Source of the DNA: Amoebophrya sp. A120
Taxonomy: Eukaryota > Protista > Dinoflagellata
Assembly: GCA_905178155.1 (NCBI GenBank)
Contig: CAJINV010000001.1
Location: forward strand, 8,949,865 to 9,013,864
Direction of reading: 5' to 3'
Length of the DNA: 64,000 bases
Each line of letters starts with the position of its first letter. The first letter of the stretch is position 1. The position numbers and the translations under genes were made by a program. Of this stretch, positions 5,133-56,700 are shown in pieces. Below the pieces are notes generated by a model that saw only the letters and a list, made by a program, of their open reading frames with translations, was not told the origin of the DNA and ran no database searches.

Positions 5133-8100
5133 TTACTTCTTTTTCCTCTTGTTTTTCTTCCCCCCGGCCCCGCCACGACTACTTTCAGCAGACATGAGCC
5201 AGTCCGCGGGAGCCCACGCCAAATCGAAGGACTCAATCATTATGGTGTGCGCGGTCGCGACAATCGCGCTGGAATTCCACTGCTTTTTGGCTTTCTTCAG
5301 GACACTTCTGTACGAACTGGAAAAAAATGCGGACCACTTTTGCGCAAAACTCCCCACCGCAAGCGCCGTCCGGCTGCTCTCGTAAAAAGCCTTGGCCTCG
5401 GTGTTCACAAAACTGAGTCCGCGATCCAGCGCGACCGGTCCGGTTTTGTACTCCGGCGGCGGGTATCAAGTGCAAAAATGTCTGGGTCAGTCTGGAACAT
5501 TTAGAACTTGTCATGCTAAATCCGAATGATGCAAAAATCTGTGTTGCGTGAGTACCAAAAGCTGTTCGCCTTTGACCAAATTGAGAGGGAGTTTCTCATG
5601 CTGCAAAGGCATGATAGAGACCTCAAAGAATCTGCCATGCTAGGTCTCGCATTCCAGACCTCATGCTCATGGTTCATGCAAAACGTGCATGACAAGTCTC
5701 AGAATCTTCCAGACCCAGACATTTTTGCATTTGATAGCGGGAACAACCCGGGGGCGGTGTACCACCCGGCCTTGTATGTGGCGTAGATCGACATCAGGTT
5801 CCACACCGCCGCGAAGCCGACCAGCATGGCGAGCGCCGCGAAAAAGGTGGCAAGGTGGGCCCGCGTTTGCGTGGCGTAGGGTTGGCGCGCAAGCTGGACG
5901 GCGAACACGAGAGCCAAACCCCCGAGCATGAAGAGGCCGCTGCACCCAAGGCCCTCGCCGAGGTACTGGGACCGGTTCGACTTCGCAATGTACTCCCCCG
6001 CTTCCCCCGTCCAACGCATTCCGTGGAGCAGATTGTAAGTGAGGCCACTGCAGCCCAACCTGAAGTGATGATCGATGATTCTTTAAATTCATTGTTTATT
6101 CCGCGTCACTAGCGCTGGGACGATCAACTTTCTGCACGAGGACCCTGCAATCAAAATACTGAAGCCTAAACCAGGACATCTATCGACTATAGAAAGTAGT
6201 TGTAGTCGCCGACGCCGTCGCATTAGAAGTATAGACCAAGCCGTGCAAGATTCTCATTCTGGAGAAAGAAGTATCTCTATCTTTTCTAAAAATCCGCTTA
6301 CCACTGCACCGCCACGGCACCCACTACCATTAGTAGTGGTGCCCAGCGTACTAGTGCCGCGCCCAAAACAAGCACCAACAGCGCGGCCAAGCCGATGCCG
6401 ACCAGTGGCGCCATCTTCCGCAGGCGGGCGAAGAGGTCTTGGTACAATTCGAGCCTCGGTCGAGGCGCAAAGGATTTCACGAAGTCCAGCAATTCATTCG
6501 GGTTCGACCAGTCGACTGCCGCGTATACGTGCTGGGGCCGGAACGAAACTGTGCCATTGCGGCGTCGCAGGGTGGATCCGCGCGCGTGCACTAGCTTTGG
6601 CACTTTCTCAAATTTGTGGAAGGCGCAAACTTCCTGCATGGCGCTGTTCTCGGAATCGCAATACACTACCGCAAAAAAGACGTCTTGCTTCTCCGAAGCG
6701 ACAGCAGACGCCGCTTGCTGCTCTCCGCTTGAAGACGCACTCGCAGGAGCTCCCGGGGGACCAAGGCCAGCATCTGCCGCGCTTGACGGTCCTCCCAAGT
6801 CGTCCTTATCGTTATGCTCACCCAGCACATGATAGCTGTTTATGAAGATTGAAGTAGAATCTCATTCTCAGCTAATTACTTTGCAAAGTAACTAGGGTGA
6901 ACCTCAATCAGATTTCATGGATTTTTCAGCGATAGAGCCGGTAGAGGTTGTGGACTTTGAGGTTGTAGTAGCTAGAAGGCAGATGAAACAAGTGAAAATC
7001 ATAATTTACAGTTCAAAGTCAGTATGAACATTTTCATCCACATCATAGTCTACCTGGCGGCGACTTTTTGGAAGGACTCCATTGCCCGGCCACATTCCCG
7101 GCTGCAGTGGCCCTTGCGCAGGTTGCAGCAGCCCCGCACAGTGAAGAGGATAAACAGGTGATATGGACGAGGGGAGCGGAGAACAAGCTCGGAATAACGC
7201 TCCACTGTGTCGATCTCGGGAATCATACCGCAGGCACGGCGATCGCCTGATACGATGATGGAGAGTGCAAGAAAAGATCAACAGCAACCTTAAGGGCGAG
7301 GCAAATATATAAATCGAAAAAGGCTTCTTGACCAAGGACGCATTCGTGCAGCACCAGCAGCCACCAGCAATGATATTAATAGTTATCTCATACCTCCAAT
7401 CAGCATGGCCGTGCAGTGCTTCGTTTGATCCCGAAGCCATTTTATTTTTTCGCGTGCCTTTTCCGTAGAGTCCACCGCTGTTGCGTCCCGAAAATCTACT
7501 TCGGTTAGAGCTTGCCCATCTGTTAAGCGCGGGGCTGTGTAAGTATCAAATAAGAGGCGTGTAAGTAGCACCGCCGGTGTAGGGCGGCACACGCCAAAGG
7601 AGGAAGGTGCCACGCATATGAGCGCTCCGCACAGGATTGCCATCGATCAAAATTGAAAAGGACTCGAAAGCACCAAAATCGAGGGCAATGAGCCGAGCAC
7701 CCCGAAAACCGGGGCGAGAGCTCGGGCCTCCGACGCGTGTGAGCGCTCTGCACAAGATTGCCGTCGGTCAAAATCGAGAAGATCGCCACGAAAAATGGCG
7801 GAAGTGCAACAGCCACGAGCTGTATGCGTGCCCGCTGGGATCTGTCATGCTTCTTTCAATGAAAGACGCGTGACAGATCCCAAGTTTGAAGATCTCCCAG
7901 GCACGCAAAATCCAGGCTGCAGCCCCCCCCCAGGCCGCACAAAGTTGGCGGCGCAATTCCCCAGGCACACAGAATCGATTTCGCAAGCCCCCTAGATCGC
8001 GAAGAATTGAACTAGTATACCGCGCAAGCCAGGGGATCGCACCCTTTCGCATTTTGTGCGTCGCGCAACCCTTCCACAAAAAAAAATCGATTTTGCGCCG

Positions 8101-8653
8101 CCCGAGGACGAGGCATCTTCGAGATGCGTGCCCGAGGGGTGCGCACAAAATCGAATCTGTCCGCGGGTACTCACAAAATCGATTTTGTGAGCACCGCCCG
8201 CCGGAATATGACAATCCGGCGTCCTCAAATTGCGACAAGTATTTGTCGCGCACAAAGACACGGGAGTTGAGGCAGTTGCCTCAACTCCAAAACTCCCAGG
8301 CTTTCAGACTTTTCACGAGTAGCTTACGCGCCACTTATTTTGAACTTACACGCCCGATATCTTAACAGCCTGGCAAGCTTTAATACTTCGGTCGCCTTTT
8401 CCGTAGAGCCCACCGCTGTTGCGTCCCGAAAATCTACTTCGGTCGTCCGATCCTGCAGTTTGCCGATTATATTACCAGTCGTCTCCTCGGCTCGCACTGC
8501 AACCTCTGCAACGACGACACAGAATGACAGACGAGACAAGAAGAAAACAAGCTGGCTCTGCAGCAGAAGCTGACAGAATGCTGACCCGCGGAAGAAATTG
8601 GCCGACTTCGCGGACGGTCGAGGTCTGCTGAACGAGGAGGAGGAGCGTTTCAT
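5133..8653 (-). CDS. OST3: OST3/OST6-family oligosaccharyltransferase subunit (thioredoxin-like lumenal domain plus TM helices), multi-exon
   Basis: Hand-joined exons give: hydrophobic N-terminus (8324..8653 ORF), then YSELVLRSPRPYHLFILFT...CSRECGRAMESFQKVAA (about 7247-7054), then VFFAVVYC...KVPKLV plus TMs (6298..6828), then GLTYNLLHG...YIAKSNRSQYLGEG...IYATYKAGWY (5737-6058), then FPPPEYKTGPVALDRG to the stop at 5133. Three canonical GT-AG introns and two TIR-element introns. Confidence 0.85.
5464..5736. mobile_element. introner/MITE family A (TATCAAATGCAAAAATGTCTGGGTCTGGAA TIR), 273 bp, 5-bp TSD GCGGG, inside an OST3 exon
   Basis: Left end tatcaagtgcaaaaatgtctgggtc, right end ttccagacccagacatttttgcatttgata. 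GCGGG at 5459-5463 and 5737-5741. Removal restores GLFP-PPEYKTG in frame. Confidence 0.93.
7456..8443. repeat. 51-bp-period exonic tandem repeat (17 aa, TEVDFRDATAV[G/D]STEKA) split by the 879-bp element
   Basis: 7456-7505 and 8394-8443 are identical except for one base. Confidence 0.9.
7505..8383. mobile_element. 879-bp non-autonomous TIR element with 8-bp TSD TACTTCGG (hAT-like), inside an OST3 exon
   Basis: Imperfect TIR of about 65 bp: ttagagcttgcccatctgttaag...gtgtaagtatcaaataagaggcgtgtaag versus the reverse complement of the right end, ttaaagcttgccaggctgttaag...gtgtaagttcaaaataagtggcgcgtaag. TSD at 7497-7504 and 8384-8391. Internal aaaatcgatttt motifs and a direct repeat of about 47 bp (7614 and 7735). 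No transposase ORF seen. Confidence 0.85.
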
Positions 8654-9645: not shown

Positions 9646-12600
9646 TCAAGTGTTTTCTTCCCCGCCGGCATCCGCCACTACTTCGTCCGTCTTCTGCACA
9701 AAGTCGTGCAGAAGCAGCTCCTTGGCGGTTGGCCGCTTTTGCGGGTCCCGCGTGAGACACCTTGCCACGAAGTTTCTCGCAGTCGCGGAGAGGTGGGCCG
9801 GAATCTCGGGAACGTCGTCTGTCATCGCGATGCGCATCAGCATGGCAATGTTGTTGTCAAAGCAGAGCTCGGACCAGGGCGCCCGGCCGCTCGCCATCTC
9901 AATGAGGAGGCAGCCCAGCGACCAGATGTCCGCCTTCGTGTCGTAGGGCGTTCCCTTCATCACGTCGGGGCTCATCCAGGGAATCGACCCGGTCATCGTC
10001 TGCGCGCACATCTGGTCGCCCGATCGGGACATGATTTGCTTGGCGCAACCAAAGTCGGACAATTTCACGCAGCAGTTGAGCCCGACCAGGATGTTCGCGC
10101 CCTTGATGTCGCGGTGGATGAAGTTCCGTTCGTGGAGGTAGGCGAGGCCCCGTAGCAGCTGGCGGCAGTACACACGCACCAGAGACTCGTCCAGGGGCCC
10201 AAAGGTGTGGATCACGGCGGAGAGCGAGCCACCGGGCATGAACTCCAGGTAGATAAACAGCACGTCCTGCCCGTCCAGGGTCATGGTTTCGTGCCCCAGG
10301 TACTGAATGATCGCGTCGTGGCGCAGCGAGCGGTAGCTGTTCAGCTCCCCGTCGAGGTTCTTCTTGACCAGGTCCGTCGCGTCGTGCAGGGACACCTCCT
10401 TCACCGCCAGCAGTTTGCCCGTCTCGGTGTCCAAGGCCTTGAAGACCGTGCCCAGACTGCCGCAGCCCACGGGGTCGCCCTTGATCCAGCGGTAAAGCGA
10501 CCCGGAAATCAGCTTGTTCCGCCGCCGCAGGCCGCCGGTGGACCGCATGGTCCCTCCCAGGTTTGAGGTTGCCGTCAGGCGAAAACCACTGGAGGCCGTC
10601 GCGGTGCCGGAAAAGGCCGGCTGGAGTGTTGGTTGGGGAGCTGGGGTTTGTTCACACGGCGTGACACTTTTCTCACCATCGTCCAACCAGCGGTCCGGAC
10701 GACCATCAGACGCAGAATGTTCTTCTCCTCGTTCGGCCCGTCCAGATCCTGCGTTTCTTCCGTGGCTTTCGTCACCAGAGCGCTCTTCAAGTGGATTTTT
10801 AGTAGCACCGAGAGCGCCAGCCGAGGACGGAGGAAAGGCGCCGAAGGCGTGTGATACGTCAACTTCAATGGCCTCCGATATTTGTCTAGTTGGGTCGTCG
10901 TCCTCTCCAACGGCTTGACTGTGGTCCTCCACATCACGGGCGCTTCTTGTGGTCCGCCCTTCGCCATGAAAGGTTGGGTTATGCCTGCTCCCGGCCTCGT
11001 CGGCAAATTCGCCCAGCAGCGGTGGCCGCCGCGGGTGCAGTTTTATCTCGTGTGTACTTTCGTCCCGGGATGCTGGCCATTGCTGGAAGGCAGCGGCGGG
11101 CGGAAAAAGCGCGTCGCTACCTGCTTGGTGTTCCTCCTCTACGGCTTTTAGTCCTGTTCTTTCCTGCTCTGTGACAGACGATGACGAAGAGGTAGAGGCA
11201 GAACTTGACGATCCGCCACGACTAGAATGCGCAGCAGAAGCACTCCTGGACGACGTGGGCAACACGGAAGCAACATTTAACCCTGGTGCACCTCCTGCTT
11301 CCGTGGTTGCGCTTGCACTTGAGCTCGACGCAGACGAAGCGGAGGACGATGCGGCACTACTTGACGGACTTGAGCACGAGGAAGACGCAGCAGAGCTTGA
11401 ATCTACTTCTTGGCAGGTCGCCCCGGTCTTTTGTTTGGTGTCTACTTCGTCGCGCCGGGTCCGGTTTATCTTGTTCATCTCGTCAGACGCATTTCCGCCC
11501 TGCCGCGTGTGATCGTCGGGTGCCACGACGATGTCGCGAAAGATGCCGCAGGGCTGCGGCGCCAGGTTGATGTCGTCGATGCGCGCGAGCATGTCGCTCG
11601 GGTAGAGCTCCACGGCCCCCCGGGAGGACAGCGTTCCGCGCAGCAGCAGTCCGGCGGTCGTGTGGTCGGCGTCCGAGGGGGCAGGGGAGCTGGATTCCGG
11701 CGACGACGACGCCGACAAGTCGTGGTTCATCTTCAGCAGCTTCTTCTCGAAGTGCTGCTTCGACGGGCTGATCAGGCGCGGTCGCGACGTGGGCGAGTGG
11801 TCCAGTTCCGCCGGCTTCTCAAAGTCGCGGGCTCGCACCAGGTCCTCCTCCGCGGTGCAAATGCTCAACGCCACCGGCAAACTCGGGGGCCGACTGCTGG
11901 TAGTCAGGGTGGTAACGACATCCTCAAAGTTTTCCTTTCCGTTCCACTGTACTGCCTCCATGTTCTTTGTCGACGTTCCCACACCCTGTGCCTGCGTTGT
12001 CGGTCCTGCGGAGAGTAGTTGTAGAGATTTACCGTCGTCCGTGACGGGTTCTGATGTCGCACAATCCCTATTTCGTCCTTGAAGATGGCCATTGACATGC
12101 GCGGACGCAGGAATCGCAGAGAACGAAGCAGAATTCTGGTTGGAAAGCTTCGAGGAGGAGCTTGATGAAGATGATGTACTCGAGGTCCCACTTGCGACGT
12201 TGCTCCCGATGAGCACCGGGTCGGAATCGACCTTGTCAGGCACATTATCGGGGCCGCAGTTGCTGCGGGCGGGTCGCCCGGTGCTGGATGCGTTCTCCAC
12301 GTCGGAAGAGGCGTTCGACTTGCCCCAGCTCGAGTCCAGCGGGTTGATGTTGTCCTCTTCGTGGAAACTGGAGCTCTTGTTACTCTCCAAGTCCGGCACT
12401 GTTTGTCCCGGCAGGTGGGCACTTTTCCCCGCCTCGCCCCCTTGATCTTGCGCATGCATTCTCTGACGACTGGTGCCTAGTGGCGCATCCTGCCTGTCGT
12501 CGTCGTTGGTGTGGTGCACCAGCTCCGAGTCGACATCCCCTGGTCCTTCCAACGGCCGTATACCGCTCTGCTTCTCCTCGTCGATGGGAGACGTCGTGTA

Positions 12601-15282
12601 GGTGAGGAACGTCTGCGTCGAGCGGACCCGCTTGCGCTGGCTCTGGTGGATTGGTTCGTCATTCGCACCTTCATGATCAGGAGCCGAGTTGTGGTCAACG
12701 AGTGCACTACTTTTTTCTTGCTTCTCTTGTTCGTCCACCGCCACTGTACACGGCTCAGGCGATCGATCCGGGCAGACGACGTCATCCGGGATGACTTCTA
12801 GTGGTGCAAAGACAGAGGAAAATCCGTCGTCTTGGTCTGCACCATTTTTACCTCCGCTGTTTTTCATCGCAACACTGCTCCCGTGTTTGACGGCACGGGT
12901 CCTGTGGTAGTTTCTCTTGCTCGGTTTAGTGCCATTTTTGGGACCGAAAGTCATACTGGAATCGTCATGCCGCTCCACAAGCCGACTTGTATCGTACTGA
13001 TGTGGATTTACTATTCGCTGTTGTGTCACCTGTCCCGCTCCTGGTGTACCTTCGCTTGCTGAAAGTTCCACTGCATCAACTGCTCTTGCTTTTCCCTCCG
13101 CGGCGGAGAGCGATTCTGGCGCCCGAAAATGAGACTCGTCTTCAAGTTCTGGGGATTTGAAGAATGATGCTCCTGTGGTGTGAGAATGTTGTAGTCCGCC
13201 TGTTGCACCAAAAGCAGCGTAGTGCGTCGAGGAGCTGCTGCAGCTGCTGCCCGCCGGACTGGCCCTACTCGCGTCTTCGCGCTGGGTGACGCTGAAATCT
13301 ACCCCGGTTGCTGCGGCGCTGCGCACCCCGAAAGAGGTCGCCGTAGTGGTATGATGGAAGCTGCTGCACAGCGTCGACGCAGTTACATACCCGGGGTGCG
13401 GTGCTGCAGACTGTGACTGGTGGAAAGGGTTTAGTATTTCTGGGCTACGACCTTTATCAAAGGGTTTGTTCTTTGTTTCACCACTTTCACCAGCAGTAGA
13501 GATTACTTCCGGATGATGAAGATGAAAAGACGAGTTGTCTCGCTGTGTTAGCATGCTGGTGCTGGTCGCCGTATTTGAAAATGCATTATGATCCGTAGTG
13601 CTGTGGCCAGCCCCACTGTTGAATCCGTCTGTTAGCGTGCCCTCGGGGAATTCTCGACTGCCGAGCAGGAAGGTGGAGGTCGTGCGCAGCTCGGTTTCAT
13701 TCTTTGGCTCCGGAGACCGCCCGAAAGTCAGACTGTGTTGCAGCTCCTCGAAAAATGGGTCGTGAGAGTTGTTGTGCACTAGGTTCATCTTCATCCTTGA
13801 CGCACTTGTTCCTGTCGTGGTCCCGAGCTCTGCTCCTGCTTGCCTTCTAGTATGATCTTCGTGTACACCTACACCTCGCTCCGCTCTTGCGGGGGGAAGG
13901 ATGTCAACGCGCTGCGCAGCAGCAACGAGCTGGCTGGTTGCCAGAAGCTGCACTGATTCCGTCATGGAACCGGAAGCAAAGCTGTTTTCGTCTTCTTTTT
14001 CCGTACGCCACGACGGTGGAAGTGGTGACCTGCTTTGTAGAACATGGCGTGATTGTGGTCCGTGATGTAGTTGACCGCGGCCAGACGACGAGTGCCTCTC
14101 ATGGTTCTGGCCCGCCTGCTCAGGGTGGTGGAGCTTATTTCTGTTCATCTTGTACGGACTGCCACTGTGACTGTGGTGGCGCAATTCTTCTTGTCCTTCG
14201 GCTTCATCTTCACCCGTCCTCGTGCCGCGCTTCTCGCGATGGAAATCTTGAGATGCTCTGTGGAATTCGGTCGCGTAGTGGAACTGTGTGCGGTCGTGAA
14301 AACGAGTACCCAGGTAGGTTCGCATCTGGGTCGCACTTTCCGATCGCACAGGCTCTGGTGTTGCGCCGGAATGAAAGTGCGGGATGCTGAAATCATCTCC
14401 TTCGTCGAGATCGGCATGAAACTGTGTTGCCGTCAATGAATCAGCGGAACTACGCCCCAGTTGTTTATTGCCCTGCTCACGAAGCCCGCCCAAAGAACTA
14501 CTCGATCCAGAAGCAGATGCGTGGCCGCGGAGGTTCGCTGTGGGTGCGGTACTATGTGGACCACCAAAATCGTGCGCATACAGGTTCTTCGCTGGCGGCA
14601 GAGCCACCGGAGCTATTCGCGAGGTAGAGGGAGCGGACGGTCCTCCACTGGCTCCGAATTTACTGGTGTCCCCCGCCCCGGGCGGAAGAAGCGAAGTGGT
14701 CGGCACTTGTGCTGTAGTAGCATTGGAAAAAAAGGAGGGCCGTTTGCTTGGGAAAACGCGCTGCTGGTGCTTGCTGGCACCGCTCGTCGCTGTGGTGCAA
14801 CTGCTGCTGCCGCTCCCCGGACCTGTGCCTGCATGGTGATTCTCCAGGTGCGCTGAAGAGGAATTCTGGCCCGACAAATCATGTCCCTGCTTTTTACGAA
14901 GCTGGTAGAAGCGTCCCGCGGGACTCTTGCATGGTTCCGTCTTCGCAGGACTGGGGTGGTTCCCCGCACTGCCAACCGAAGCGGTGCGCCGCTTGACGTT
15001 CTCGCCGGAGATCGGACGCAGTTTGCTTCGGTTCAAATTGTTGCGGTGCGCCTGAAAGCGCGGCACTGCATAGTGCCGTTTTGTAGCGCCGAGCGCAACG
15101 GTGTTGTTTCCAAGCGCCACAGGGTTCACGTGGGCGGAGGTTGACGAGTTCCCGGTGGCCGCGAACGCTTTGGCATCGCGCACGATCGCAAGTGGGCTCT
15201 GAGCGGTCGCGGCGCTCGTAGAGCTGCTGCGAGTTCCGGGCTCACGCATTTTTTTTATCACTCCTTTTAGTTGCGTTCCCAA
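9646..15282 (-). CDS. STE11/MEKK-like MAP kinase kinase kinase with a very long low-complexity N-terminus
   Basis: 1878-aa ORF with a C-terminal kinase domain: WIKGDPVGCGSLGTV, AVKEV, YLEFMPGGS, HRDIKGAN, DFG, TGSIPWMSPD, DIWSLGC. Start codon uncertain. Confidence 0.9.
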   Translation of the reverse strand: MGTQLKGVIKKMREPGTRSSSTSAATAQSPLAIVRDAKAFAATGNSSTSAHVNPVALGNNTVALGATKRHYAVPRFQAHRNNLNRSKLRPISGENVKRRTASVGSAGNHPSPAKTEPCKSPAGRFYQLRKKQGHDLSGQNSSSAHLENHHAGTGPGSGSSSCTTATSGASKHQQRVFPSKRPSFFSNATTAQVPTTSLLPPGAGDTSKFGASGGPSAPSTSRIAPVALPPAKNLYAHDFGGPHSTAPTANLRGHASASGSSSSLGGLREQGNKQLGRSSADSLTATQFHADLDEGDDFSIPHFHSGATPEPVRSESATQMRTYLGTRFHDRTQFHYATEFHRASQDFHREKRGTRTGEDEAEGQEELRHHSHSGSPYKMNRNKLHHPEQAGQNHERHSSSGRGQLHHGPQSRHVLQSRSPLPPSWRTEKEDENSFASGSMTESVQLLATSQLVAAAQRVDILPPARAERGVGVHEDHTRRQAGAELGTTTGTSASRMKMNLVHNNSHDPFFEELQHSLTFGRSPEPKNETELRTTSTFLLGSREFPEGTLTDGFNSGAGHSTTDHNAFSNTATSTSMLTQRDNSSFHLHHPEVISTAGESGETKNKPFDKGRSPEILNPFHQSQSAAPHPGYVTASTLCSSFHHTTTATSFGVRSAAATGVDFSVTQREDASRASPAGSSCSSSSTHYAAFGATGGLQHSHTTGASFFKSPELEDESHFRAPESLSAAEGKARAVDAVELSASEGTPGAGQVTQQRIVNPHQYDTSRLVERHDDSSMTFGPKNGTKPSKRNYHRTRAVKHGSSVAMKNSGGKNGADQDDGFSSVFAPLEVIPDDVVCPDRSPEPCTVAVDEQEKQEKSSALVDHNSAPDHEGANDEPIHQSQRKRVRSTQTFLTYTTSPIDEEKQSGIRPLEGPGDVDSELVHHTNDDDRQDAPLGTSRQRMHAQDQGGEAGKSAHLPGQTVPDLESNKSSSFHEEDNINPLDSSWGKSNASSDVENASSTGRPARSNCGPDNVPDKVDSDPVLIGSNVASGTSSTSSSSSSSSKLSNQNSASFSAIPASAHVNGHLQGRNRDCATSEPVTDDGKSLQLLSAGPTTQAQGVGTSTKNMEAVQWNGKENFEDVVTTLTTSSRPPSLPVALSICTAEEDLVRARDFEKPAELDHSPTSRPRLISPSKQHFEKKLLKMNHDLSASSSPESSSPAPSDADHTTAGLLLRGTLSSRGAVELYPSDMLARIDDINLAPQPCGIFRDIVVAPDDHTRQGGNASDEMNKINRTRRDEVDTKQKTGATCQEVDSSSAASSSCSSPSSSAASSSASSASSSSASATTEAGGAPGLNVASVLPTSSRSASAAHSSRGGSSSSASTSSSSSVTEQERTGLKAVEEEHQAGSDALFPPAAAFQQWPASRDESTHEIKLHPRRPPLLGEFADEAGSRHNPTFHGEGRTTRSARDVEDHSQAVGEDDDPTRQISEAIEVDVSHAFGAFPPSSAGALGATKNPLEERSGDESHGRNAGSGRAERGEEHSASDGRPDRWLDDGEKSVTPCEQTPAPQPTLQPAFSGTATASSGFRLTATSNLGGTMRSTGGLRRRNKLISGSLYRWIKGDPVGCGSLGTVFKALDTETGKLLAVKEVSLHDATDLVKKNLDGELNSYRSLRHDAIIQYLGHETMTLDGQDVLFIYLEFMPGGSLSAVIHTFGPLDESLVRVYCRQLLRGLAYLHERNFIHRDIKGANILVGLNCCVKLSDFGCAKQIMSRSGDQMCAQTMTGSIPWMSPDVMKGTPYDTKADIWSLGCLLIEMASGRAPWSELCFDNNIAMLMRIAMTDDVPEIPAHLSATARNFVARCLTRDPQKRPTAKELLLHDFVQKTDEVVADAGGEENT

Positions 15283-46500: not shown

Positions 46501-48016
46501 GCAAGTTGATCTGAAACCTTTGCTCTTGCAGACTGCCTTGAGTCTTCCCCGGAAGCTTGACAGTGACGGGTGAGGCAAAATGCACCGGGAGCGACACTTG
46601 CCGCGTCAATTTCTGATTCCGAATGTCACTCTTTAGCACCTTGCCCACTTGCCCCTGTAGCGCAGTTTGCAGCGGACCCTGCAACTCCGCGAAGTGTGGC
46701 GCCAGCTCGATCGGTGCCGCGGCTGACGTCGGTGTGCCGCCGGCTGTCTGCTCATGCAACCCACTCGCATGCGTGTCCGGACGGAAAATGACCTGCACGA
46801 AAACAACTGCGCCCTCGGGTCGCAACAGGAGGAGGTCGGATCCTAGAAAACGGTTGACGTTTCCGGTGTCGACACTCAAAGCCGCCATCACCCCGTCACT
46901 TCGGCTCACCGCCTCGGTGAGGGATTGGGTCAAGAGACGCAGTGGCGTTTTGATTTCTCTGCTACGGAGAAACCCTTCCTCGCCGGATGTCCCCCCGCCT
47001 GCCACATCAATCAGCCCGCGTGACAGCTGTCGCAGCGCGACGGCCCCCATACCGTCCGCGAAGAAGTCTATCCATGTCTCCGACGGTCTCACGCTGCTGG
47101 GGCGCGCTTCCTCGTCCCCCTCGTCGCTGGCCTCTGCGCCCTGTTGGTGCAGCCTCCTACTTTTTCGACCGGTGGATGACCGCGAAGAAGTGGACCTTCC
47201 GCCACGAGAGCGACCCGAACCTGACATCAGCTGCAGCCAAGTCAGTTTTTTGCCGCTTTCCTCGGTACTAGCACCACTTGAAACTGTCGTTGTTGCTGCG
47301 AGGTGGACCACCGAGTTGGTGGAGTTTCCCGGTGTCGGCAGCAGTGGCCCCAACTCGTCCCCGTCGCGGCCCGGGAGGCGACGCCCGCCATAGGTCTTGT
47401 GGCCGTTCTCCTTCTCGTTGCTCTCAGTCCTACCTCCTTGCTGCGCAAAGAAGCTGCTGAGCTGAGTGGTTTGGCCGTCGGGCGAAGTCTCCACGGACAG
47501 AACAAGGGGAGCTTCCAACGGTTTTTGATGTGCTCTCATCCCTTCTCGTGGTCCTGCACCTGCCGTGACTGTACTACTACTAGCGCCTGTAGCTGTATCG
47601 CCACGGGAGGACGCCGCTGGCATGGCCTGCGTATTTTCAAGAGGAGGTTGATTGCCTTGCGGCCCTTCGTCATCAAGATCATCCTCGGAAAAACGCGGGC
47701 TGCTCTCGCCGCCCGAGAAGTGGAGGTCCTCGATTGTGCTCAGATCGTCGCCGCCCTTTTGTTCATCTGCACCAGTCTGCGTCGCAGCTACGTTGCCAGC
47801 GGTGGGGACTGCGCGCAACAGACAGGAGCAACAGGAGAACAAAAAGATGCACAATGTACCACACGCTCGACCTGGCCGTCGAACAAGCACATTCAATTTA
47901 TTTGGAGGACGCCGACTCGATCTCGGAAACGACGCGGCCATCGTCTTCACCATGGTGGCCGACAAATCAACCATGATCCAATTTTTATGAAAGTATCTCC
48001 TCTCTTCGGTAAACAA
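43568..48016 (-). CDS. large hypothetical membrane protein
   Basis: 1482-aa intronless ORF with an N-terminal hydrophobic segment, an internal TM-like stretch, a Cys-rich juxtamembrane block and two C-terminal TM helices. Confidence 0.8.
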   Translation of the reverse strand: MFTEERRYFHKNWIMVDLSATMVKTMAASFPRSSRRPPNKLNVLVRRPGRACGTLCIFLFSCCSCLLRAVPTAGNVAATQTGADEQKGGDDLSTIEDLHFSGGESSPRFSEDDLDDEGPQGNQPPLENTQAMPAASSRGDTATGASSSTVTAGAGPREGMRAHQKPLEAPLVLSVETSPDGQTTQLSSFFAQQGGRTESNEKENGHKTYGGRRLPGRDGDELGPLLPTPGNSTNSVVHLAATTTVSSGASTEESGKKLTWLQLMSGSGRSRGGRSTSSRSSTGRKSRRLHQQGAEASDEGDEEARPSSVRPSETWIDFFADGMGAVALRQLSRGLIDVAGGGTSGEEGFLRSREIKTPLRLLTQSLTEAVSRSDGVMAALSVDTGNVNRFLGSDLLLLRPEGAVVFVQVIFRPDTHASGLHEQTAGGTPTSAAAPIELAPHFAELQGPLQTALQGQVGKVLKSDIRNQKLTRQVSLPVHFASPVTVKLPGKTQGSLQEQRFQINLQHLFPLPQTGDLVTFLIPVFSSSNSASPIMFSPGSVSAVTAVRYHVVSTNEKAANTARNKQQQQTFAGPEQITRGKKVARIALEAMPVENFLGLRGPQAYAPRIMLEDVAADSLRLLPPGTANPITPGQHQDYTQPQAQTSAPRATSSGGAFGARFGGFRVFASAGSSKQPGKKKKRAGGQLRVYRFFYDRARFARTLAPGGAAAAVSTERLHSVRLEEDYEFYRLLHFALKNLARLVRTFLESSQLLIPKKLLREYDNKKATSSGRVPASSDESSAGRSTSQRSSSKTDSKDTKREIRAQLGKRFTRYLEGLTKQILQATFAAFADDKSAAVKIQRADFAPPLHNGTQLLSLFPKLTDHILSVTENKLLLFPLQDSFLLMPKMHGFGFFAGVGGGGQSPTSTTYLGRGKAAASRMSDMLDMFGEMLGTPEDADVPDQAPVRFLLPIAKRVAQGIDFQHFASADVRSNYLLGVVGRARAPRAETQEKDGAEPVTTSARTTKRSFVQFLQGDRREQKQQTETSIMSQKKTRTRRPRGRKKTSRNVASGGSADALASQPASANATSAASAPAVSVPDVFPNVMASLPEAQLSGIVVGLLLLLQGALSISRRKVKEEHQNRNRNVGGASPPTTTTMAELIYYAPIVGGGGADSFAQSLFAKDGDATGSSRSRAGKDSGLDWSTVQSFVNVLPVLQVEWGRVLASGKRYLNPAEEKKEEGVPAVSSRSTERAPGRKRVASFFQILSRQKQGPPRRMESRSHIRDSASTLDSSRETAPAQPERERKGDAYLIDWLRGGRSRRQSEQPIVGALVRAQQPTSSEKVLRTELPTQKTRTKPSRSRDIKPKLSTGSLAPRKTTKCCSNIKMECCRNMQCSCLGKMKDCRQLMNTCRCSCCTSYSLCKVIELSVLFVIFLFFLGLFVIGLFVILDLLSPSGELGWLVVPIGANLPQWVVILAAGFCMIVFFGLLIRRCEGAGYCIAQ

Positions 48017-48292
48017 CTCTTTCCAAGGGTGTATCGAATCAGAACTTTCTATGGCATTTCAATTTGTTTATTTCCGTTTATTCGTCATAAAACACGTCAC
48101 GCGGACGAATAGTTTTTCAAAATAATTTTTATTTCAAGTTACAGGCGAGCATCAACAAATGACAAAAACCTAAATCTCACTCAAGTGCGCGACACAAATA
48201 TAGACAACAAATCTCTTCTGCTGTATCTCTTGAAGCCCTCGCTTGGTTCCAGTCGAACTCAGAAACGGAGTTTTTCTCGCGTCCGAAGGTTC

Positions 48293-48440
48293 GTTCCTCT
48301 TGTGCGCAAACGAAAATCCAATGACAGACGGATTGCGATTGTGGGCTCCTCACAATCGATACGCAAGAAAATATCCTTTCAGTTACGGCGTCGTCATGCA
48401 TGATGATTCGTCAGAAGAACATACTTTCCCTTTTTGCCAA
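48293..48440. repeat. intergenic dispersed repeat, copy 2
   Basis: Direct-orientation match to 42641-42785. Confidence 0.85.
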
Positions 48441-48928: not shown

Positions 48929-51900
48929 TCAATCCCCAGGGTCCATCGGCGTTCCCTGTGGTGATACCACGGCTTCCAGTCCCCTTCTAGATTCGAGTCT
49001 TCCTGCATAATTTGCATTTGGTTCTTTTCGCACAAGTGTGCTTTCCTTTCGCGCCGCGGGAAGTAGAGGGGGTGACTCATCAGGAGGTGAGCTCTGTTGC
49101 TGTTCCAAAAAAGCGGCTTCTATCTGTGGTCTAGTTTTCGCATTCTTTTTTGTTCCAGTTCGACTTTTCATCCTAGGGGACGATTTTTGACTTCGGGGTT
49201 CTTCCCGCCCGCTATATCTGCTGTTTTCCGATTCAGGGCTAGTGCTGCGTTGGTGCTTCATCGTCCCGGTAGTCCGCAAACCAGGTTCCTGTGGCACGAG
49301 GGTTGGAACACGACTCGAGGTCCTGGTCCTCCGTATCCTAGTACTGTTTTGCTTCCCTTCAACATGATGATCTCCCCGGGCAACTACATTTTCCATATCA
49401 GCTGCTGTGGGCGAAGACGATGCTGCGTCGTGGTCGTCATCTAGTACTATGACGTGCTGATTTATGGCTTTGTGCTTCACGAACGAGTTGCGTTCCCGTG
49501 TTTCGAGGAAACTAATACTGAAATTGGAAGAATTGGAGTTGTTCGCCGGCACGGTGCCTGTTCCCGGTAGATTGTTGACCCCGGTTACGCCGTGCCCGAA
49601 CGTCGTATGCAAGAGAAAAACTGTGTTAGTGTAACTTTCGTTGGCTGACAGCATCACAAATTTCCTCCACATGACAGAGAAAATCTGTCATGCGTGGCTT
49701 GTAAGGGAGAACACACATGAAAAGAGGACTCCATGGTCGTTTCGCATGACAGGCGTACTTAACTCGTGTTGCACGTTCTGCATTACAGAGTTACACTTGC
49801 ACAATTTTTTTCTTGCATACGTCGGGTTCAGTGTCTGGTACCAAACTGAGATCGCGGCCGCCCACGAGGTCGCATAGCTGAAGAGCCCAGGCTGGGTGAA
49901 GTTGCACTCCCCGGCTAGACGGCATGGTTGGTCCTGATTGGGCCCGCAATCCTCCTCGAGGTAGTGGTCTGCATTTCCGCCCGGAGACGCGTGGGAGTAC
50001 ACTGCGGCCTGTACCTGCTCTGCGTGCAAAATGGCGTCCAGGTTTCCCACGGAACATCCGGCGGTTTTGGCCAGCAACCAGTGCGGCTCCGGGTAGTTCC
50101 TGGTTGCGCCGATCGACTGGACGAAATGCTCGCGCAGAATCTTGAAGTCGGTGGCCCATTGGGCGGGTTCCCCGGCCGATGCATCCGTCTCGCCCTGGTG
50201 CATCAGAATCGCGTCGACACGATCTGGGTGTTGGAGTTAATTCTGCTGGTATTATAAGTATCCTTTTTTCCAAAATCGCAAGTATGAACGACGCGCCATG
50301 TTGTCCTTACATTGTGTTGCAAAAAAAGCCGAAACTCATCGAACAACCGAACGGAAAGCAAGAATTTTATAGAAAGTGGCCGCTAGTGTAAAAATACTGT
50401 AGTGAAAGTGCAGCTCCATGTACACCGTATACAGGTCTTGGAAGAACCTCCCGTTGTAGTCTGTTAGCTCTGCAAGTGTTGGACTCTCCTTGGCCACTGA
50501 TGCGAACACAACTTCGCTGTAGTAACCGCCCGCGACCAATAGTTCCCCCACCGTCCCCCAGAGAGACCCACCGCAACCGGTCCCACCGATCACCGGCTCG
50601 CCGGGCCGAAGGGGCCACACGGACCCATCATATCAAATGCAAATTACTTGCCTGGGACTGGAACATTGCGGAGAACTGTAGTACTGCAGCTTGATACTGA
50701 CCGAGGGTGTCTGCGATGCGGGTTTTGAAAAAACTCGACTCCTCAATGCCTAGTTTGCAATTGCATGCAGGTGAAAATTCGCCTCGAATTCTCGCTACCA
50801 AAAATGGGTAGTTTTTCGTGCTGATGCGCTACGGATTTCCCTGTTCTTCAGAGCTCGCATCAGAAACTCGCACTCTTCCAGACCCCGACGTATTTGCAAT
50901 CCATACATCGTAGTAACTGTACACTTTTCCCGAAGCCTGCACGTAGTTCTGCTCCGTCAAGAGATGCCTGTTCTTGCTCAGAACCTCCTTGATTTCAATC
51001 AGAGCCGTCGAGTTGTTCTCCAAAGCGTCGAGCATTTCTGTTTTTTTTTTAGGGGTTGGCAGAATTTAAGGCTTTGGTCAAGGTTTTGCTTTGCAATTTT
51101 TCATTTTTTTTCTCTTCGCTCTGAATGGAAAAGGAAGGCGCAGACCATCCAGCCGAAAAAGCTCGCTGCGCCGATATCAACATCTCGGCCGGTATCCAGA
51201 CCAGCAGAAGTCGGGCAAAATGGAGGCCGCGCGCTTGCTGCTTCCAACCTCTCCCCCGGGTAAATACGATGCAGCCGCGGCGGCATTTTTCTCGGCTGCT
51301 GCTGACCTGGACTGCTGGCCAAGATATTAACCTCGATACCTCCCCAGAAGAACCCCAGACGCATGCCATCCGCCGCGAGGTATTTGGGCCGCCGGGCTGC
51401 TGGCTCGGCTTCTCCGCCCCCACATCTCATCCCGCGGTGGTGCATAACGGGGTCCGGGGGAAGAGGCTGAGCAGCTGCGGGCTTGCCCGGCTGGAGGTTT
51501 GGCCGGGTCCCGGTTGCCGCCAAGGCAGCAAGCTCTCGGCCAGGCTTTTTCGTGACAAAAGCGCACCAAAATGGAAACAGGTTCCGACTTTTTCCGGGAG
51601 CTTTCCCCGGGCTAAAGCTTCCGCCTTTGCCCTCGCTTTGCCCCCCCCTTTTGGCCGAACTTGGTGGCCTAAACTAGGCCGACACGGGCGCCCATATCTT
51701 GGCCAGGCGGCCTGCCTTTTCCTGCGAGTTCCCTGGAGCAAATGGCAGGGCGCCCGGCTTCTCTACCCCCGCATCTCGTTCCGCAATCTTGCGGGACGCC
51801 GTCCCGAGGCAAAGGTAGAGCACCTTCCTGGCCAACCACAGAGATGCTTGTCTCTGTAGTGGCTGCCGCCAAAGCAGCAAGGTTTTGGCTGCCGCCAACT

Positions 51901-52890
51901 CGACGGGAAGAGCCGTCGAGTTGTTCTCCAAAGCGTCGAGCATTTCTGTTTTTTTTACGGTTTAACTGCACGACGTCTTCCAAATTAAGCCATTGAAACG
52001 AGAAAAGCGAGTACATCTAACTACATTCTCTAGTCGAAAGCGGTAGCGGTTCAAAGAAAAAGGCCTATAGAAGTTTGAATAGATACCGCCAAAATTCCCA
52101 GCCGCCGCCTCGCCAAACGTCACAAAGACGCCGGGATGGGAGAGGATACTTGGAGGTTCGCCGGATATAGTGTCGGCGGGTGGATATCCTTGCGGCTCAT
52201 AGCGGTTATTTTCGCCCATTACGAAATCTTTACACATCCCCGCGTTCGCGCTGTTAAACAAATGGGTCCGATTTCTGGAATCCGGTTCATGCGGATCAAA
52301 ATCTATCAAACGCTCAACGGCGGCATCTTATCGTGATAGACATAGATGACCATGACAGCAACAAGAAAATAATTGAAACTAAAAGGGAAACGGAATCAAA
52401 ACTAACTAGAGGCTTGATAGTACTCTCTATGCCACTGGCCGGCGAAGATGAGAAGCAGGAGCAGCCCCGCCAATAAGCAACAGCAGAAAAGCACGCAACA
52501 CCCGCCAAGGATGGCAGCACCGCCAAACATGTACTCCAAACGGATCAGCGTTTCGCTTGAACCTGTCGGACCCATTGCAGGTGCCGGCATCTCTTCCGCG
52601 CTCCCGTCTATCGGCACCCCCAGCATGGCCTCGGCACTCTTCGGAACGGGTCCCGCCTCGCCTTTCGAAACCGGATCTTCCTTCGAAGCCGGATCTTCCG
52701 TTTTCTTGTCTGGCGGCTCTTTCTTCTCTTCCGCCTCAGGGTCTTTCTTTTCTTCGGCAGTGGTAGGAGGCGCATCTTTCTTTTGCTCCGGCAAGGCCGC
52801 CGCCTCCGCGGGAGCATCAGCTGCGGGAGCAGGCTCTTCCGCCGGAGCCTCCGCGGCTCCGCCATCCGCGGGCGGCGCAGCGTCGGCCAT
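48929..52890 (-). CDS. type II membrane protein with an SGNH/SASA (sialate O-acetylesterase-like) domain, catalytic residues apparently lost; multi-exon
   Basis: Acidic Pro/Ala N-terminus plus TM (52402..52890), then FVTFGEAAAGNFGG (GQSN block), YYDGSVWPLRPGEPVIGGTGCGGSLWGTVGELLVAGGYYSEVVFASVA, DAILMHQGETDA and GECNFTQPG..YATSW. The join around 52024-51038 is uncertain. Confidence 0.7.
49606..49819. mobile_element. introner family C, 214 bp, TATGCAAGA TIR, TSD CGTCG
   Basis: Inverted repeat tatgcaagagaaaaactgtgttagtgtaact / agttacacttgcacaatttttttcttgcata. CGTCG at 49601-49605 and 49820-49824. Removal restores LNPT-FGHGVTG. Confidence 0.92.
50631..50905. mobile_element. degenerate introner family A, 275 bp, TSD CATCA/CATCG
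   Basis: Ends tatcaaatgcaaattacttgcctgggactggaa and ttccagaccccgacgtatttgcaatccata. Removal restores YSYYD-GSVWPLR. Confidence 0.85.
51049..51908. mobile_element. 860-bp GC-rich insertion with a hAT-like left end and truncated right end, flanked by a 48-bp host duplication
   Basis: 51001-51048 is identical to 51909-51956. Left end is ttaggggttggca. The right end stops at gccaac; ggctgccgcca subterminal repeats are present. Confidence 0.7.
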
Positions 52891-53714: not shown

Positions 53715-56700
53715 CTATTTTTTCCTCCTAGCCTGCAGCTGGCCGATTCGGAACCAAATCTGTTTCCAGGCCTTTTCCGCATTGTCCTTGCCGTGCCTCG
53801 AGTACTGATCATTGGGGTCGATGTTTCTCCATTGCAGCGCGTGAAGCCAGTTCGTGACCTCTTTTTCGCTAGCGAACTTGCGCCATGGCAGCACCGAGTC
53901 AATGCCGTGGGCCAGCCAATCTCGGTACTGCTGGTCCATCTGATATTCCTGGGCCCCGAACCGCAGCTCCGTCAGAAAAGTCGGCCACGCGTCCCGTATG
54001 CGCTCGCTGTTGTTGATGACCGCGCACCGCAGCATGGACAGAATGACCTGCTGCCCGTAGCACTGCAGAAGAAATTGTCCGGGCAGCATCGCGGGACCGG
54101 GAGGCTGCGGCGAACCCGGGTGGTTCATCAACATGGGATTCAGCGGACCGCTGGTGGTCACCTGAAAATTCTTCTCCCGGAGCATATTCTCGAGAAACCC
54201 GAGCTGCGACTCCAACGCATTGTGGTACGTAACCTGAAAAGAGGTGGTCAGTGGTCTGGTCAAATTCTTTATCGAGTGTATTCATGCTCCGTTTCAGTAG
54301 TTACAATGAGAATATAGTACTTTCTTGTAACTGACAATAAAGTGTAGTGCGATCGTCATGCTAATGTGGAATCGAAGAGCAGCAATTGTTCATGACTTCA
54401 ATCCATCTTGATCATACATAGTACCAGCAAGCACTTCGGTAGCAGGTCTAGTGACGGCTTGAGCGTTTCGCTGTTGTACACCACCGCTGGCGCGCATTTC
54501 GCGTACCTTCCGTACATGCCGTAGAAGTCTTCTATGAGTTCCGCGTTCAGATCGTCGTCGCGCATGGCCATCAACGCGGGCAGGGCGGCTTTGCCCATGC
54601 GCTCGAACAGCTGCGCCAGGGCGGGCAACACTTCCGGGTCGTTTCCGTACTCCGAAACCACGTACTCGGAGGCGTACAGCCAGGAGCTCAGCAGCTTCTT
54701 TTCGAAGCAAACCGTGATGGTCTCGATGTACGTGGGCAGCACCTGCTTGAAGACCCGGGGCATCTTTCGGAGCGCGTGCTTCTGGAATCGCGTGATCTTT
54801 TCGATCAAATCCTCCTCCGTCGGGTGGTTGTGGCAGATGCGGTTCACGGTTGGATACAAGGTCGTCAAAAACGCGCCCCCCAACGCCTCGGCGAAGCCGG
54901 GCATCGCGTGCATGCGCTCCATGTCCGTGTGGTCCATGAGCATGACCAATCGGTCCACGATCTCGCCGAGTTGCGGGGGCGTGACGTTCTCGTGCCGAAG
55001 ACCGTTCACCAGCGGTACTATCATCTTTTCCAGCGCCTCGCGAAACGTGTGCAGGTCCTCGAGCTCCATGAGCACTTCGGTGAGCCCGCGGGTCACCTCC
55101 AGGTGGATTTTCAGGGGGAGCAGCTCCAGCGAATTGCCGTACACCGAAAGGAGCTGCGGGAGGTATTTGACCAAATTCGATCGGTGGCGGTTACATATTC
55201 GGGAAAAGGCGTACCCGGCAGCCCGCTGCTTGTCCTTGGACTTCTTCGCGCCGTCGGCGAGCAGGACCTGGCAAACACAATTCAGGTTCGCCTGCATCAA
55301 CTCCTCGCTTACGTCCCCGAGATTGCCGGCCATGGTGTCAATCAAGCCGAGGGCGGAGTGCTGGCAAAATTCCAGGTAGTACCTGTCGGGGTTTTTTCAA
55401 TCCGTGGTTGCGTAGAGATGAGGAAAAAAATTACTTATCATTATCGCGGATGTACTTATCCCACTATAAGACTTTACCGTGGTGCCAGGATGATAGTGAT
55501 GGCCGTCAACTACCCGCATGATGCACAATGATTCTTATGCTACATTAACAGGAGACAAAGCCAACTCATAGTGACTGCAACCGTTATGCTGGATATTACC
55601 TGTTGTCGGTTTGCGCGGGTTCGCTTTGGATGAGGTTCGGCAGAAAGGTGAGCAACTCTATCATCGCGGGGTAGGCGGAGTGCTCCGGGTCGATGTGGAA
55701 GCACATCGCGACCACTTGAAGCAGGAAGAAGTGGGCCTCCAGCTTCAGATGTACCTGATCTCTTGACGCACCATTGGGCGCCGTGCTCGACGAGGACCCG
55801 CCGCCGCCGGACACGCCGGCCGGGGCCAGCCGTGCGCTTTCCTGCTTCAGACTCTGGACGAGGAGCTGGAAGACTTCGCCGCGCCGCACCAGTTCGTATT
55901 CGGTGATCGTGCTGCCGAGCGACCTATCAAATGTAAAAATGTCTGGGTCTGGAAGATTGCGAGATTTGTCATGCAAATTTTCCATGACCAATGAGGTCTG
56001 GAATGCGGCGCCGAGCATGACAGAGTCTGTGAGGTCTCTGCCATGCCTATCCCGCATGAGAAACTACCTCCCAAGTTGGTCGAAAGTGGACAGCTTTTGG
56101 CACTCATGCAACACAGATTTTTGCATTTTACTCGGATTTAGCATGACAAGTTTTAATCTTCCAGACCCAGACATTTTTGCATTTGATACGACCGTACGCC
56201 TTCCCACCGGAACCGCTCCCAATCCTCGTCCGCGTCCTCGAAGGGATTCTTGATGTCTTGGTGGGGCACGATGCTCACCTGATGTCGTCGCATTGATTTC
56301 TCTTAGAAGTGGACTTGCTGAAGAAGCACTCCACGAGGAAGCAAACAAACTATAGCATCTAAAAGTAAAAAGAAAAACGTCGTGCCGAAAGACAAATGCA
56401 TCAGTATGAATTTCTTTCAAAACCAACCCTTTCTACCTCGAGCAAGACGCCGAACAGGTGCTTGTAGAGCTTTTCCGTCTGCTCAATTGTGGATGCGCTT
56501 TGCGGCGGCTGCATCTCGTAACTGTTAGAGGTCGCCCCTGCGAACGTGTCCGTCAGGGTGAGCCAAAAGTCCACGACGATGTTTGCCAGGTGCGGGACCG
56601 GGACCTTCAGGCACAGCACCAGCAGCTCCAGAAACTGGTTGTACTGGGCGGGGTTTCGGGCGATTACCTGCACCAAAGCCTCGCCCGCCGTCGCAATGAC

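Follow-up and report, generated by a model that had tools for sequence, protein, structure and literature searches.

Eight inverted-repeat elements in exons of four Amoebophrya sp. A120 genes are missing from transcript-type contigs

The introners of Amoebophrya sp. A120 are described as having inverted repeats (IRs), with a motif of TAT, 7 nt, and AAA, and direct repeats (DRs) of 3 to 5 nt, for a mean length of 240 nt (PMC7789003). In the same paper, a 5-bp DR is given as an example in the legend to Fig. S19 and a range of 3 to 8 nt in the legend to Fig. S21. Nearly all spliceosomal proteins were found in A120, without U1 snRNA (PMC7789003, section 10), and the introner cut position was left open. 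In PMC12130899, the portion of supplementary file 8 considered here lists A120 introner families derived from DNA transposons with terminal inverted repeats (TIRs), such as fam38 ("5-bp TSD, TA/TA Termini") and fam65 (Mutator, "8-9bp TSD", GG/CC termini), TSD standing for target site duplication. The phenomenon, as the initial annotation of the present locus acknowledged, and the participation of several TIR families, which it proposed, are therefore already in print for this strain (PMC7789003; PMC12130899, supplementary file 8), and our contribution consists of eight confirmed examples and no new system. The wider question is how an organism with no detected U1 snRNA excises tens of thousands of introns that have no splice dinucleotides in common.

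We analyzed a window of 64,000 nucleotides of the A120 genome, which contains the following four genes.

5133 to 8653, minus strand: OST3/OST6-family gene with GT-AG introns at 7393-7247, 7053-6836, and 6301-6060 (exon map of P0001, Pfam PF04756 with E=1e-13, contig joints)
39150 to 42029, minus strand: gene with two GFA domains and one GT-AG intron at 40823-40641
48929 to 52890, minus strand: gene for a SASA-like membrane-anchored protein with GT-AG introns at 52423-52251, 52086-51038, and 50397-50224 (exon map of P0003)
53715 to 57989, minus strand: transportin-SR/TNPO3 gene with GT-AG introns that include 56436-56279 and 55599-55383 (exon map of P0004, Pfam PF24138 and PF24139)

Three proteins that their sources assign to Amoebophrya sp. 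A120 (P0001, P0003, and P0004) match exons of the window exactly, except for 2 junction residues of P0003. The source of a further record, P0002, is a 1590-nt contig. The four proteins had been considered recognizable, which Pfam bears out for OST3 and transportin-SR, whereas the SASA assignment is a weak match (E=0.023). All nine canonical introns that were checked start with GTA. The exons of these genes are interrupted by eight elements.

5464 to 5736, minus strand: E1, TAT-type TIR element in the OST3/OST6 gene; TSD 5459-5463 and 5737-5741; 278 nt removed
7505 to 8383, minus strand: E2, 879 nt with TTA(A/G)AG ends; 8-nt TSD 7497-7504 and 8384-8391; 887 nt likely removed
39841 to 40099, minus strand: E3, TAT-type, in the GFA-domain gene; TSD 39836-39840 and 40100-40104; 264 nt removed
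40214 to 40429, minus strand: E4, TAT-type of a second lineage, in the GFA gene; TSD 40209-40213 and 40430-40434; 221 nt removed
41099 to 41388, minus strand: E5, decayed TAT-type, in the GFA gene; imperfect TSD 41094-41098 and 41389-41393; 295 nt removed
49606 to 49819, minus strand: E6, TAT-type relative of E4, in the SASA-like gene; TSD 49601-49605 and 49820-49824; 219 nt removed
50631 to 50905, minus strand: E7, decayed TAT-type, in the SASA-like gene; imperfect TSD 50626-50630 and 50906-50910; 280 nt removed
55925 to 56188, minus strand: E8, TAT-type, in the transportin-SR (TNPO3) gene; TSD 55920-55924 and 56189-56193; 269 nt removed

All eight elements of the initial annotation were present at these positions with inverted repeats at both ends, which are weaker in E5 and E7 and perfect in E4 (24/24). 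The claim of a TSD at every element held exactly for six of them, with 5 nt in E1, E3, E4, E6, and E8 and 8 nt in E2; the copies are imperfect at 41099 (E5, TACCG/TACGA, 3/5 identical) and at 50631 (E7, CATCA/CATCG, 4/5 identical). TSD lengths thus fall into two classes only, 5 nt (seven elements) and 8 nt (one element). The motif TAT-N7-AAA is found at both ends of all seven elements of the 5-nt class and is missing from E2, which starts with TTAAAG/TTAGAG and behaves as an introner outside the TAT class. The length of the element plus one TSD agreed in every case with the initial annotation, including the six that are not multiples of 3 and the in-frame stops in the two that are (264 and 219 nt, with a single stop in the latter). 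Predicted hairpins had z values of -4.9 to -8.9 in five of the seven elements that were scored and were weak in E5 and E7 (z = -1.2).

Insertion into conserved exons had originally been proposed. At E1, E3, E4, and E5, homologs can be aligned across the junction with no gap, and E4 separates two conserved motifs, GGCYCGAVKF and EARVFP. The proposal was overstated for E2, which occupies a poorly conserved N-terminal linker of OST3 inside a 51-nt tandem duplication, a region whose alignment to a single distant homolog is gapped. At E8, the strain A25 ortholog (P0005) shows a 2-residue gap next to the junction. Third-position GC is 0.68 to 0.86 on either side of the elements. The gap-free junctions and this GC level suggest that the cell needs the elements to be removed.

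Pairs of TAT-N7-AAA motifs flanked by an exact 5-nt TSD occurred five times in the window, in comparison to a mean of 0.01 and a maximum of 1 in 200 block shuffles, in a post hoc test whose motif was taken from the elements themselves and from the published description. A motif-free test combining an exact TSD of 5 to 9 nt with a score for matches among 30 terminal bases gave 21 to 29 for five of the eight elements, whereas the highest value among 5 shuffles was 20. An indel in the TIR of E4 limited its score to 19, and E5 and E7 were unable to pass because their TSDs are inexact. Scanning the window for TAT-N7-AAA revealed no additional clear element and one weak candidate (60768-61775), and a general TIR scan returned 30 loose candidates, six of which are the elements described here and the remainder of which include nested sub-matches.

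The estimate of about four families gives way to three lineages under a loose definition and six under a strict one. E1 and E8 are 83% identical and have E3, E5, and E7 as distant relatives; E4 and E6, with interiors 62% identical, form a second group; E2 is the third. Within the pairs E1/E8 and E4/E6, the elements lie in opposite orientations in genes on the same strand, which suggests that the signals for removal are symmetric. Thousands of DNA-type contigs (data set X5) match element ends. A second copy of E2, a single copy from one metagenome scan, was found at another site (L001) with 96.9% identity over 289 nt; it ends at the contig end, and the 8-nt TSD is thus documented at one site. 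TSDs of 8 bp are typical of the hAT superfamily. The three internal open reading frames of E2 gave no Pfam match better than E=0.021 and no hAT transposase. The elements have the attributes of MITEs, being short, bounded by TIRs and TSDs, and free of transposase in the Pfam scan, which covered the three E2 frames. We conclude that they are non-coding miniature DNA transposons, the introner elements of Amoebophrya A120, located in coding exons.

The fate of the elements was followed in transcript-type assembled contigs (X1 and X4), which are derived from cDNA in one study and whose label, "RNA?," is a guess. In these contigs, the element plus one TSD was absent at all eight sites, one junction being read directly and seven deduced. 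The direct case is E1, for which an X4 contig joins 5458 to 5737, skipping 278 nt, and also displays three GT-AG joints, none of the four being present in X5. Repeat-family contigs crowd the junction data (15 of 297 joints listed), and six junctions therefore rest on length sums, which could conceal compensating shifts. An X1 contig (record 1) has 590 nt for 39836-41388, the length expected if E3, E4, E5, and the canonical intron are all missing (264+221+295+183 nt). Another (record 5) has 411 nt for 55380-56434, as expected after subtraction of E8 and two introns (269+158+217 nt), with an open frame. For E6 and E7, subtraction of 219+280 nt puts the first exon at 561 and 563 nt in contigs of the SASA-like gene, in comparison to 560.9 and 562.9 nt from bin depth. 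E2 was not bridged among the contigs listed because of the adjacent tandem unit, and the break points of an X4 contig (7501/8416) fit a skip of 887 nt and not of 884 nt. X1 contained no OST3 contig at 98% likeness, an absence that proves nothing. A raw RNA run (X7) was uninformative on the four genes, since nearly all of its 134 reads fell on the E8 end at 90 to 95% likeness and almost none on exons. As had been stated, ordinary GT-AG introns coexist with the elements, and these introns are missing from the same transcript-type contigs. Together, these observations make it very probable that removal takes place in the cell and at the RNA level.

Two elements inform on the cut position. At E5, the transcript-type contig keeps the upstream TSD copy, the piece beginning at 41389 with 0 other letters; the kept copy encodes the residues of homolog P0008 (PFSY), and two of the five bases are different in the copy that is lost, which also suggests a need for removal in the cell. 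With this decayed TSD, the 5' cut can be located between bases 2 and 3 of the duplication. At E2, the deposited OST3 model (P0001) removes 884 nt, adding a Val, in disagreement with the transcript break points; a minor 884-nt form may have been lost by the assembler. The fixed rule of "element + 5" suggested by this model was dropped, since the X4 break points fit 887 nt. A skip of 883 nt and several skips ending at 8414-8421, which need an unspliced form alongside, also fit both break points; they were set aside, the former because it breaks the frame and the latter because they would remove some of the tandem unit or keep element sequence. No register yields one donor-acceptor pair common to all elements. 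E8 alone can be read as GT..AG, which is about the chance expectation (7% per site), and the presence of GT or GC at some register in 8/8 elements is not significant (joint chance, 0.057). Register -1 gives NTA in 7/7 TAT elements. Only four of these seven (E1, E3, E7, and E8) have a TTGAT resembling a branch point close to the 3' end of the TIR, and this motif was therefore not retained as a general signal.

The best explanation overall, which we hold with moderate confidence, is that introner elements are removed from pre-mRNA, probably by the host spliceosome guided by a hairpin; the chemistry itself is likewise probably spliceosomal. The transposase responsible for inserting the elements would be encoded at another locus. 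In the predicted hairpin, the two TIRs may pair and so bring the cut sites together, with a 5' cut at the TIR or up to ~3 nt upstream, where N|TA would resemble the GTA donor of the host with a relaxed first base, and with an AG-independent 3' cut a few bases beyond the stem, rebuilding one target site. A strict hairpin ruler is weakened by E5 and E7, removed despite their weak predicted hairpins, and more than a ruler is needed to account for TSDs of both 5 and 8 nt, since a fixed ruler predicts 884 nt for E2 versus the 887-nt fit.

Removal in the cell without the spliceosome is a possible but doubtful alternative. The TIR stem would be cleaved at its base by an endonuclease and the exons would be joined by a ligase, the target duplication guiding the register. 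The lack of common splice dinucleotides, the indifference of removal to orientation, seamless removal with both 5-nt and 8-nt TSDs, the failure to find U1 snRNA in A120 (PMC7789003), and the release of euglenid TIR introns as circles without lariats (PMC11282704) all favor it, whereas the retention of nearly all spliceosomal proteins in A120 (PMC7789003), the likeness of TIR starts to positions +2/+3 of the native GTA donor, as we read it, and the removal of E5 and E7 argue against it. Tentatively, a stem read either way and a TSD setting the register could turn any TIR transposon into a scarless intron. If true, this route would amount to a new type of splicing chemistry in the nucleus and would account for the harmless flooding of exons by transposons. 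The initial annotation had proposed a single scarless route for TSDs of various lengths: the outcome is indeed the same for 5 and 8 nt, but a single route is unsupported.

Removal by reverse transcriptase, jumping the hairpin between direct repeats while the mRNA keeps the elements, is very unlikely. The anatomy is that of the CD19 falsitron, a hairpin with 8-nt direct repeats that can affect as many as 70% of cDNA reads, a share exceeding 90% in certain samples (PMC8240250); RNA evidence for all sites is cDNA, and the main text of PMC7789003 makes no mention of template switch, artifact/artefact, RT-PCR, lariat, or direct RNA. Retention would nonetheless disrupt OST3, TNPO3, and two genes whose downstream exons are open, GC3-rich, and matched by homologs. 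E5 is missing from the main contig even though its hairpin is weak and its TSD copies share a contiguous match of only 3 bases, and X4 contigs that retain elements have a depth of ~3 versus 28 to 37 for spliced ones, contig depth being a poor measure.

Excision from DNA in a life stage, with transcription of element-free templates, is slightly less credible still. Internal eliminated sequences of ciliates provide a precedent among alveolates, and precise DNA excision would likewise take the element plus one TSD. X5 contigs, which drop rare variants, contain the elements at the depth of single-copy sequence and never in a joined version, crossing E5 and E7 with 0 differences and reaching into both ends of E1, and low-depth X4 contigs pass from inside E2 into the exon, as expected of unspliced RNA. 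That the genes are dead or dying, the elements being plain disruptive insertions, agrees with the frames broken in the DNA but has a negligible probability given the spliced transcript-type contigs with restored frames for all four genes.

With removal from pre-mRNA as the preferred reading, the locus makes small additions to what is published, namely, removal in both orientations, the position of the 5' cut at E5, and the discrepancy between the OST3 model (884 nt) and the transcript (887 nt). Differing TSD copies, as in E5, show which bases the mRNA keeps, and long TSDs, as in E2, separate a fixed-distance from a repeat-guided rule; cut sites of both kinds of elements could be mapped from existing RNA-seq.

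Among known systems, U2-type spliceosomal introns have GT/GC...AG ends, which are possible in one of the eight elements. Falsitrons share the hairpin, the short direct repeats, and the loss of one repeat in cDNA but sit in intact reading frames, whereas the genes studied here need removal (PMC8240250). Introners of Micromonas, Aureococcus, and Fritillaria have the same MITE origin, TIRs and TSDs, and a removal that restores the target (PMC11282704, PMC7789003); they use fixed splice dinucleotides (GT/GC-AG, or AG-AC/AT), whereas E1 to E8 share none. Nonconventional introns of euglenids also have a TIR stem joining their ends, TSD-like repeats, non-canonical junctions, and spliceosomal introns alongside; they differ by their lineage, by CAG/CTG stems at +4..6 and -8..-6, where the present elements end in TAT..ATA or TTA..TAA, and by excision as circles (PMC11282704), the comparison being limited here to contigs. 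The families of Gozashti 2025, as far as the part of the source considered extends, resemble the present set in their many TIR families, varied TSD lengths, and mostly non-canonical ends, in introns of this very genome (PMC12130899); an 8-bp TSD with TT/AA termini like those of E2 appears in none of 56 of the 58 family rows, few of which give termini. The closest match is to the A120 introners of Farhat 2021, with which E1 to E8 are almost certainly identical. The strain is the same, IRs of 8 to 20 nt or more occupy both ends (weaker in E5 and E7), TAT-N7-AAA is present in 7/8 elements, these elements are 214 to 290 nt long, close to the published mean of 240 nt, and they are mixed with GT-AG introns. 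The published introners have non-GT-AG ends and are missing from transcripts, as are the present elements in cDNA contigs, save that E8 is readable as GT..AG. Their DRs of 3 to 5 nt accommodate the 5-nt repeats of seven elements (two imperfect), whereas the 8-nt repeat of E2 falls only within the range of Fig. S21; E2 (879 nt), with its TTA-purine-purine start, resembles the motif reported in PMC7789003 for strain A25, not for A120. Relative to that paper, E5 narrows the cut position at one site.

All eight TIR elements, E1 to E8, were found at the positions proposed in the initial annotation, within minus-strand genes; the length removed is that of the element plus one TSD.

TIR elements and their TSDs
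E1, 5464-5736, in the minus-strand OST3 gene: exact 5-nt TSD, 278 nt removed
E2, 7505-8383, in the minus-strand OST3 gene: exact 8-nt TSD, 887 nt probably removed
E3, 39841-40099, in the minus-strand GFA gene: exact 5-nt TSD, 264 nt removed
E4, 40214-40429, in the minus-strand GFA gene: exact 5-nt TSD, 221 nt removed
E5, 41099-41388, in the minus-strand GFA gene: decayed 5-nt TSD (3/5 bases alike), 295 nt removed
E6, 49606-49819, in the minus-strand SASA-like gene: exact 5-nt TSD, 219 nt removed
E7, 50631-50905, in the minus-strand SASA-like gene: decayed 5-nt TSD (4/5 alike), 280 nt removed
E8, 55925-56188, in the minus-strand transportin-SR (TNPO3) gene: exact 5-nt TSD, 269 nt removed

A TSD had been described at each element; it is exact in six of them but decayed in E5 and E7. 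Element plus one TSD is a length not divisible by three in six of the eight cases, and the remaining two contain in-frame stops, in agreement with the earlier description. Exact TAT-N7-AAA pairs numbered 5 versus 0.01 expected (200 shuffles, with a motif chosen post hoc), and in a motif-free test 5/8 elements scored above the top score of 5 shuffles. Among the seven elements other than E2, strong terminal stems are predicted in five (z of -4.9 to -8.9), and the predicted stems of E5 and E7 are weak (z of -1.2). A weak TAT-N7-AAA pair was also seen at 60768-61775 (TSD 3/5, inverted repeat 8/13), possibly by chance or as a decayed element.

The proposal that the elements are removed as introns is supported by two transcript-type contig sets, X1 and X4, and the feature is real. 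Four of nine listed runs were compared with the window. The RNA status of X1 and X4 is a guess, but their contigs do not contain the GT-AG introns and are therefore mRNA derived. At E1, a contig of X4 passes directly from 5458 to 5737, skipping 278 nt with 5 letters that fit either side, and three GT-AG joints accompany this joint. Neither the E1 joint nor the three GT-AG joints are present in X5, a set of DNA-type contigs that enter both ends of E1 and span E5 and E7 unchanged. For E3 to E8, the evidence consists of length sums, not base-level junctions. Record 1 of X1 has 590 nt versus 1553 in the window; the difference is exactly accounted for by E3, E4, and E5 (264, 221, and 295 nt) together with a GT-AG intron of 183 nt. 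Record 5 of X1 has 411 nt versus 1055 in the window; subtraction of 269 (E8), 158, and 217 nt from the latter likewise gives 411, with an open 674-codon frame. For E6 plus E7, the first exon is 561 nt as deduced from a contig of 2578 nt and 563 nt as deduced from one of 2585 nt; the estimates from bin depth were 560.9 and 562.9.

Proteins recovered with the exons as queries carry the source name Amoebophrya sp. A120 and match the window's minus-strand exons at every residue but two, which are junction residues of the SASA-like protein (P0003). The whole GFA gene is covered by a 638-aa protein match. Pfam supports the OST3/OST6, GFA, and transportin-3 domains, with a SASA match at only E=0.023. 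All eight elements are skipped in the deposited proteins, which are gene models that probably depend on the RNA data. Location in conserved exons, as initially claimed, holds for most but not all sites: the junction residues of E1, E3, E4, and E5 align with homologs without gaps, whereas E8 adjoins a 2-residue gap relative to the A25 ortholog and the linker that houses E2 contains a tandem repeat of 17 residues. Three very long unbroken minus-strand ORFs (9649-15282, 18336-23756, and 43571-48058; 1878, 1807, and 1496 codons, respectively) contain no clear element, and the coding-like ORFs of the window are apparently co-oriented on the minus strand.

The repeat of the OST3 N-terminal linker is encoded by a tandem duplication with a 51-nt period (7456-7504 and 8394-8442), and E2 lies where the second unit begins. 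Among the contigs listed, none bridges E2, because assembly with 31-mers is broken by the neighboring tandem unit. The X4 contigs stop at 7501 and resume at 8416; those of X5 resume at 8414. In simulated graphs, unspliced DNA gave the X5 pattern and an 887-nt skip gave the X4 pattern. Based on these break points and simulations, the 887-nt removal first proposed is the better reading. Skips of 884 nt (as in the deposited OST3 protein P0001, KATEVVDF, with an extra Val) and of 938 nt misfit the X4 break points in the simulated graphs. A skip of 883 nt fits them but is out of frame and was set aside, as were odd mixed cases that also fit. A minor 884-nt form may occur alongside the 887-nt form, and the deposited OST3 model is likely to be wrong at E2 (7497-8391) or to reflect this minor form. 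A second E2 copy, at a different site in a metagenome contig, is 96.9% identical over 289 nt; positions 1543-1881, 1994-2119, and 3001-3288 of that contig contain the E2-family copy and TAT-type inverted ends, one pair of which encloses 339 nt.

E1 and E8 are 83% identical and E4 and E6 are 62% identical (interior); in both pairs the elements have opposite orientations in host genes on the same strand, and the removal signals are therefore symmetric, i.e., in the TIRs. No cut register yields a dinucleotide pair common to the eight elements, and GT..AG is possible for E8 only, near the 7% chance rate. At E5, the upstream TSD copy is kept in the transcript (a piece that begins at 41389 shows no difference), and a homolog shows the same S-Y residues as the kept copy. 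In the E5 duplication, the 5' cut falls between the second and third bases; the TSD copy that is lost appears to have drifted. A register placing the last A of the TIR at the acceptor is ruled out at E5 by the kept upstream copy. All 9 canonical introns checked begin with GTA, a cut one base ahead of the TAT end gives NTA, and T occupies position +2 in every predominant non-canonical motif listed for A120 in PMC7789003 (Table S4). We infer, with moderate confidence, that removal would be carried out by a spliceosome with a relaxed +1 position, no requirement for AG at the acceptor, and positioning by the stem. An endonuclease-ligase route replacing the spliceosome is a less likely possibility. 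RT slippage on a hairpin with direct repeats gives an identical cDNA product (PMC8240250), and six terms bearing on it are absent from the main text of PMC7789003, but such an artefact is highly improbable because the host genes need the removal and because E5, with its weak stem and weak repeat, is removed too.

The SASA-like gene also contains a 908-nt insertion (51001-51956). Its perfect 48-nt direct repeat makes a second copy of the acceptor AG and of the initial bases of an exon, and at one end the flank has a fold-back of 11 nt. One X5 contig is devoid of this insertion, running from 51000 to 51909. The interior of the insertion is matched by related copies at about 95%, and three ORFs within it gave no Pfam match. 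It is skipped in transcript contigs, as though it were part of a GT-AG intron of 1049 nt that ends at the second acceptor. The insertion may be recent or polymorphic and neutralised by the duplicated acceptor, or it may be an assembly effect. In X7, a raw RNA run, about 130 reads match the end of E8 (56102-56188) at 90-95% with foreign flanks, and next to none fall on exons of the window; a related TIR family is apparently transcribed in a different strain or species.

Removable TIR elements are already known for the A120 strain. PMC7789003 reports that >60% of A120 introns are non-canonical, defines introner elements by inverted repeats and 3-5-nt direct repeats (3-8 surveyed), groups 29,850 repeated introns into 1954 families, describes the A120 motif as TAT and AAA separated by seven bases, and leaves the cut positions undetermined. 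Among the papers found by searches on Amoebophrya introners, in which subscription papers were thinly covered, none announces in its title or the opening of its abstract that the cut register or the chemistry has been resolved. What is seen here of the register and of the TSD lengths has a bearing on how such introns are spliced. Amoebophrya introners have been considered beside the euglenid and Fritillaria cases in a review (PMC11282704). Supplementary file 8 of PMC12130899 (56/58 A120 rows) presents diverse A120 TIR introner families; one combines a TSD of 5 bp with TA/TA termini, and another, a Mutator family, has a TSD of 8-9 bp.
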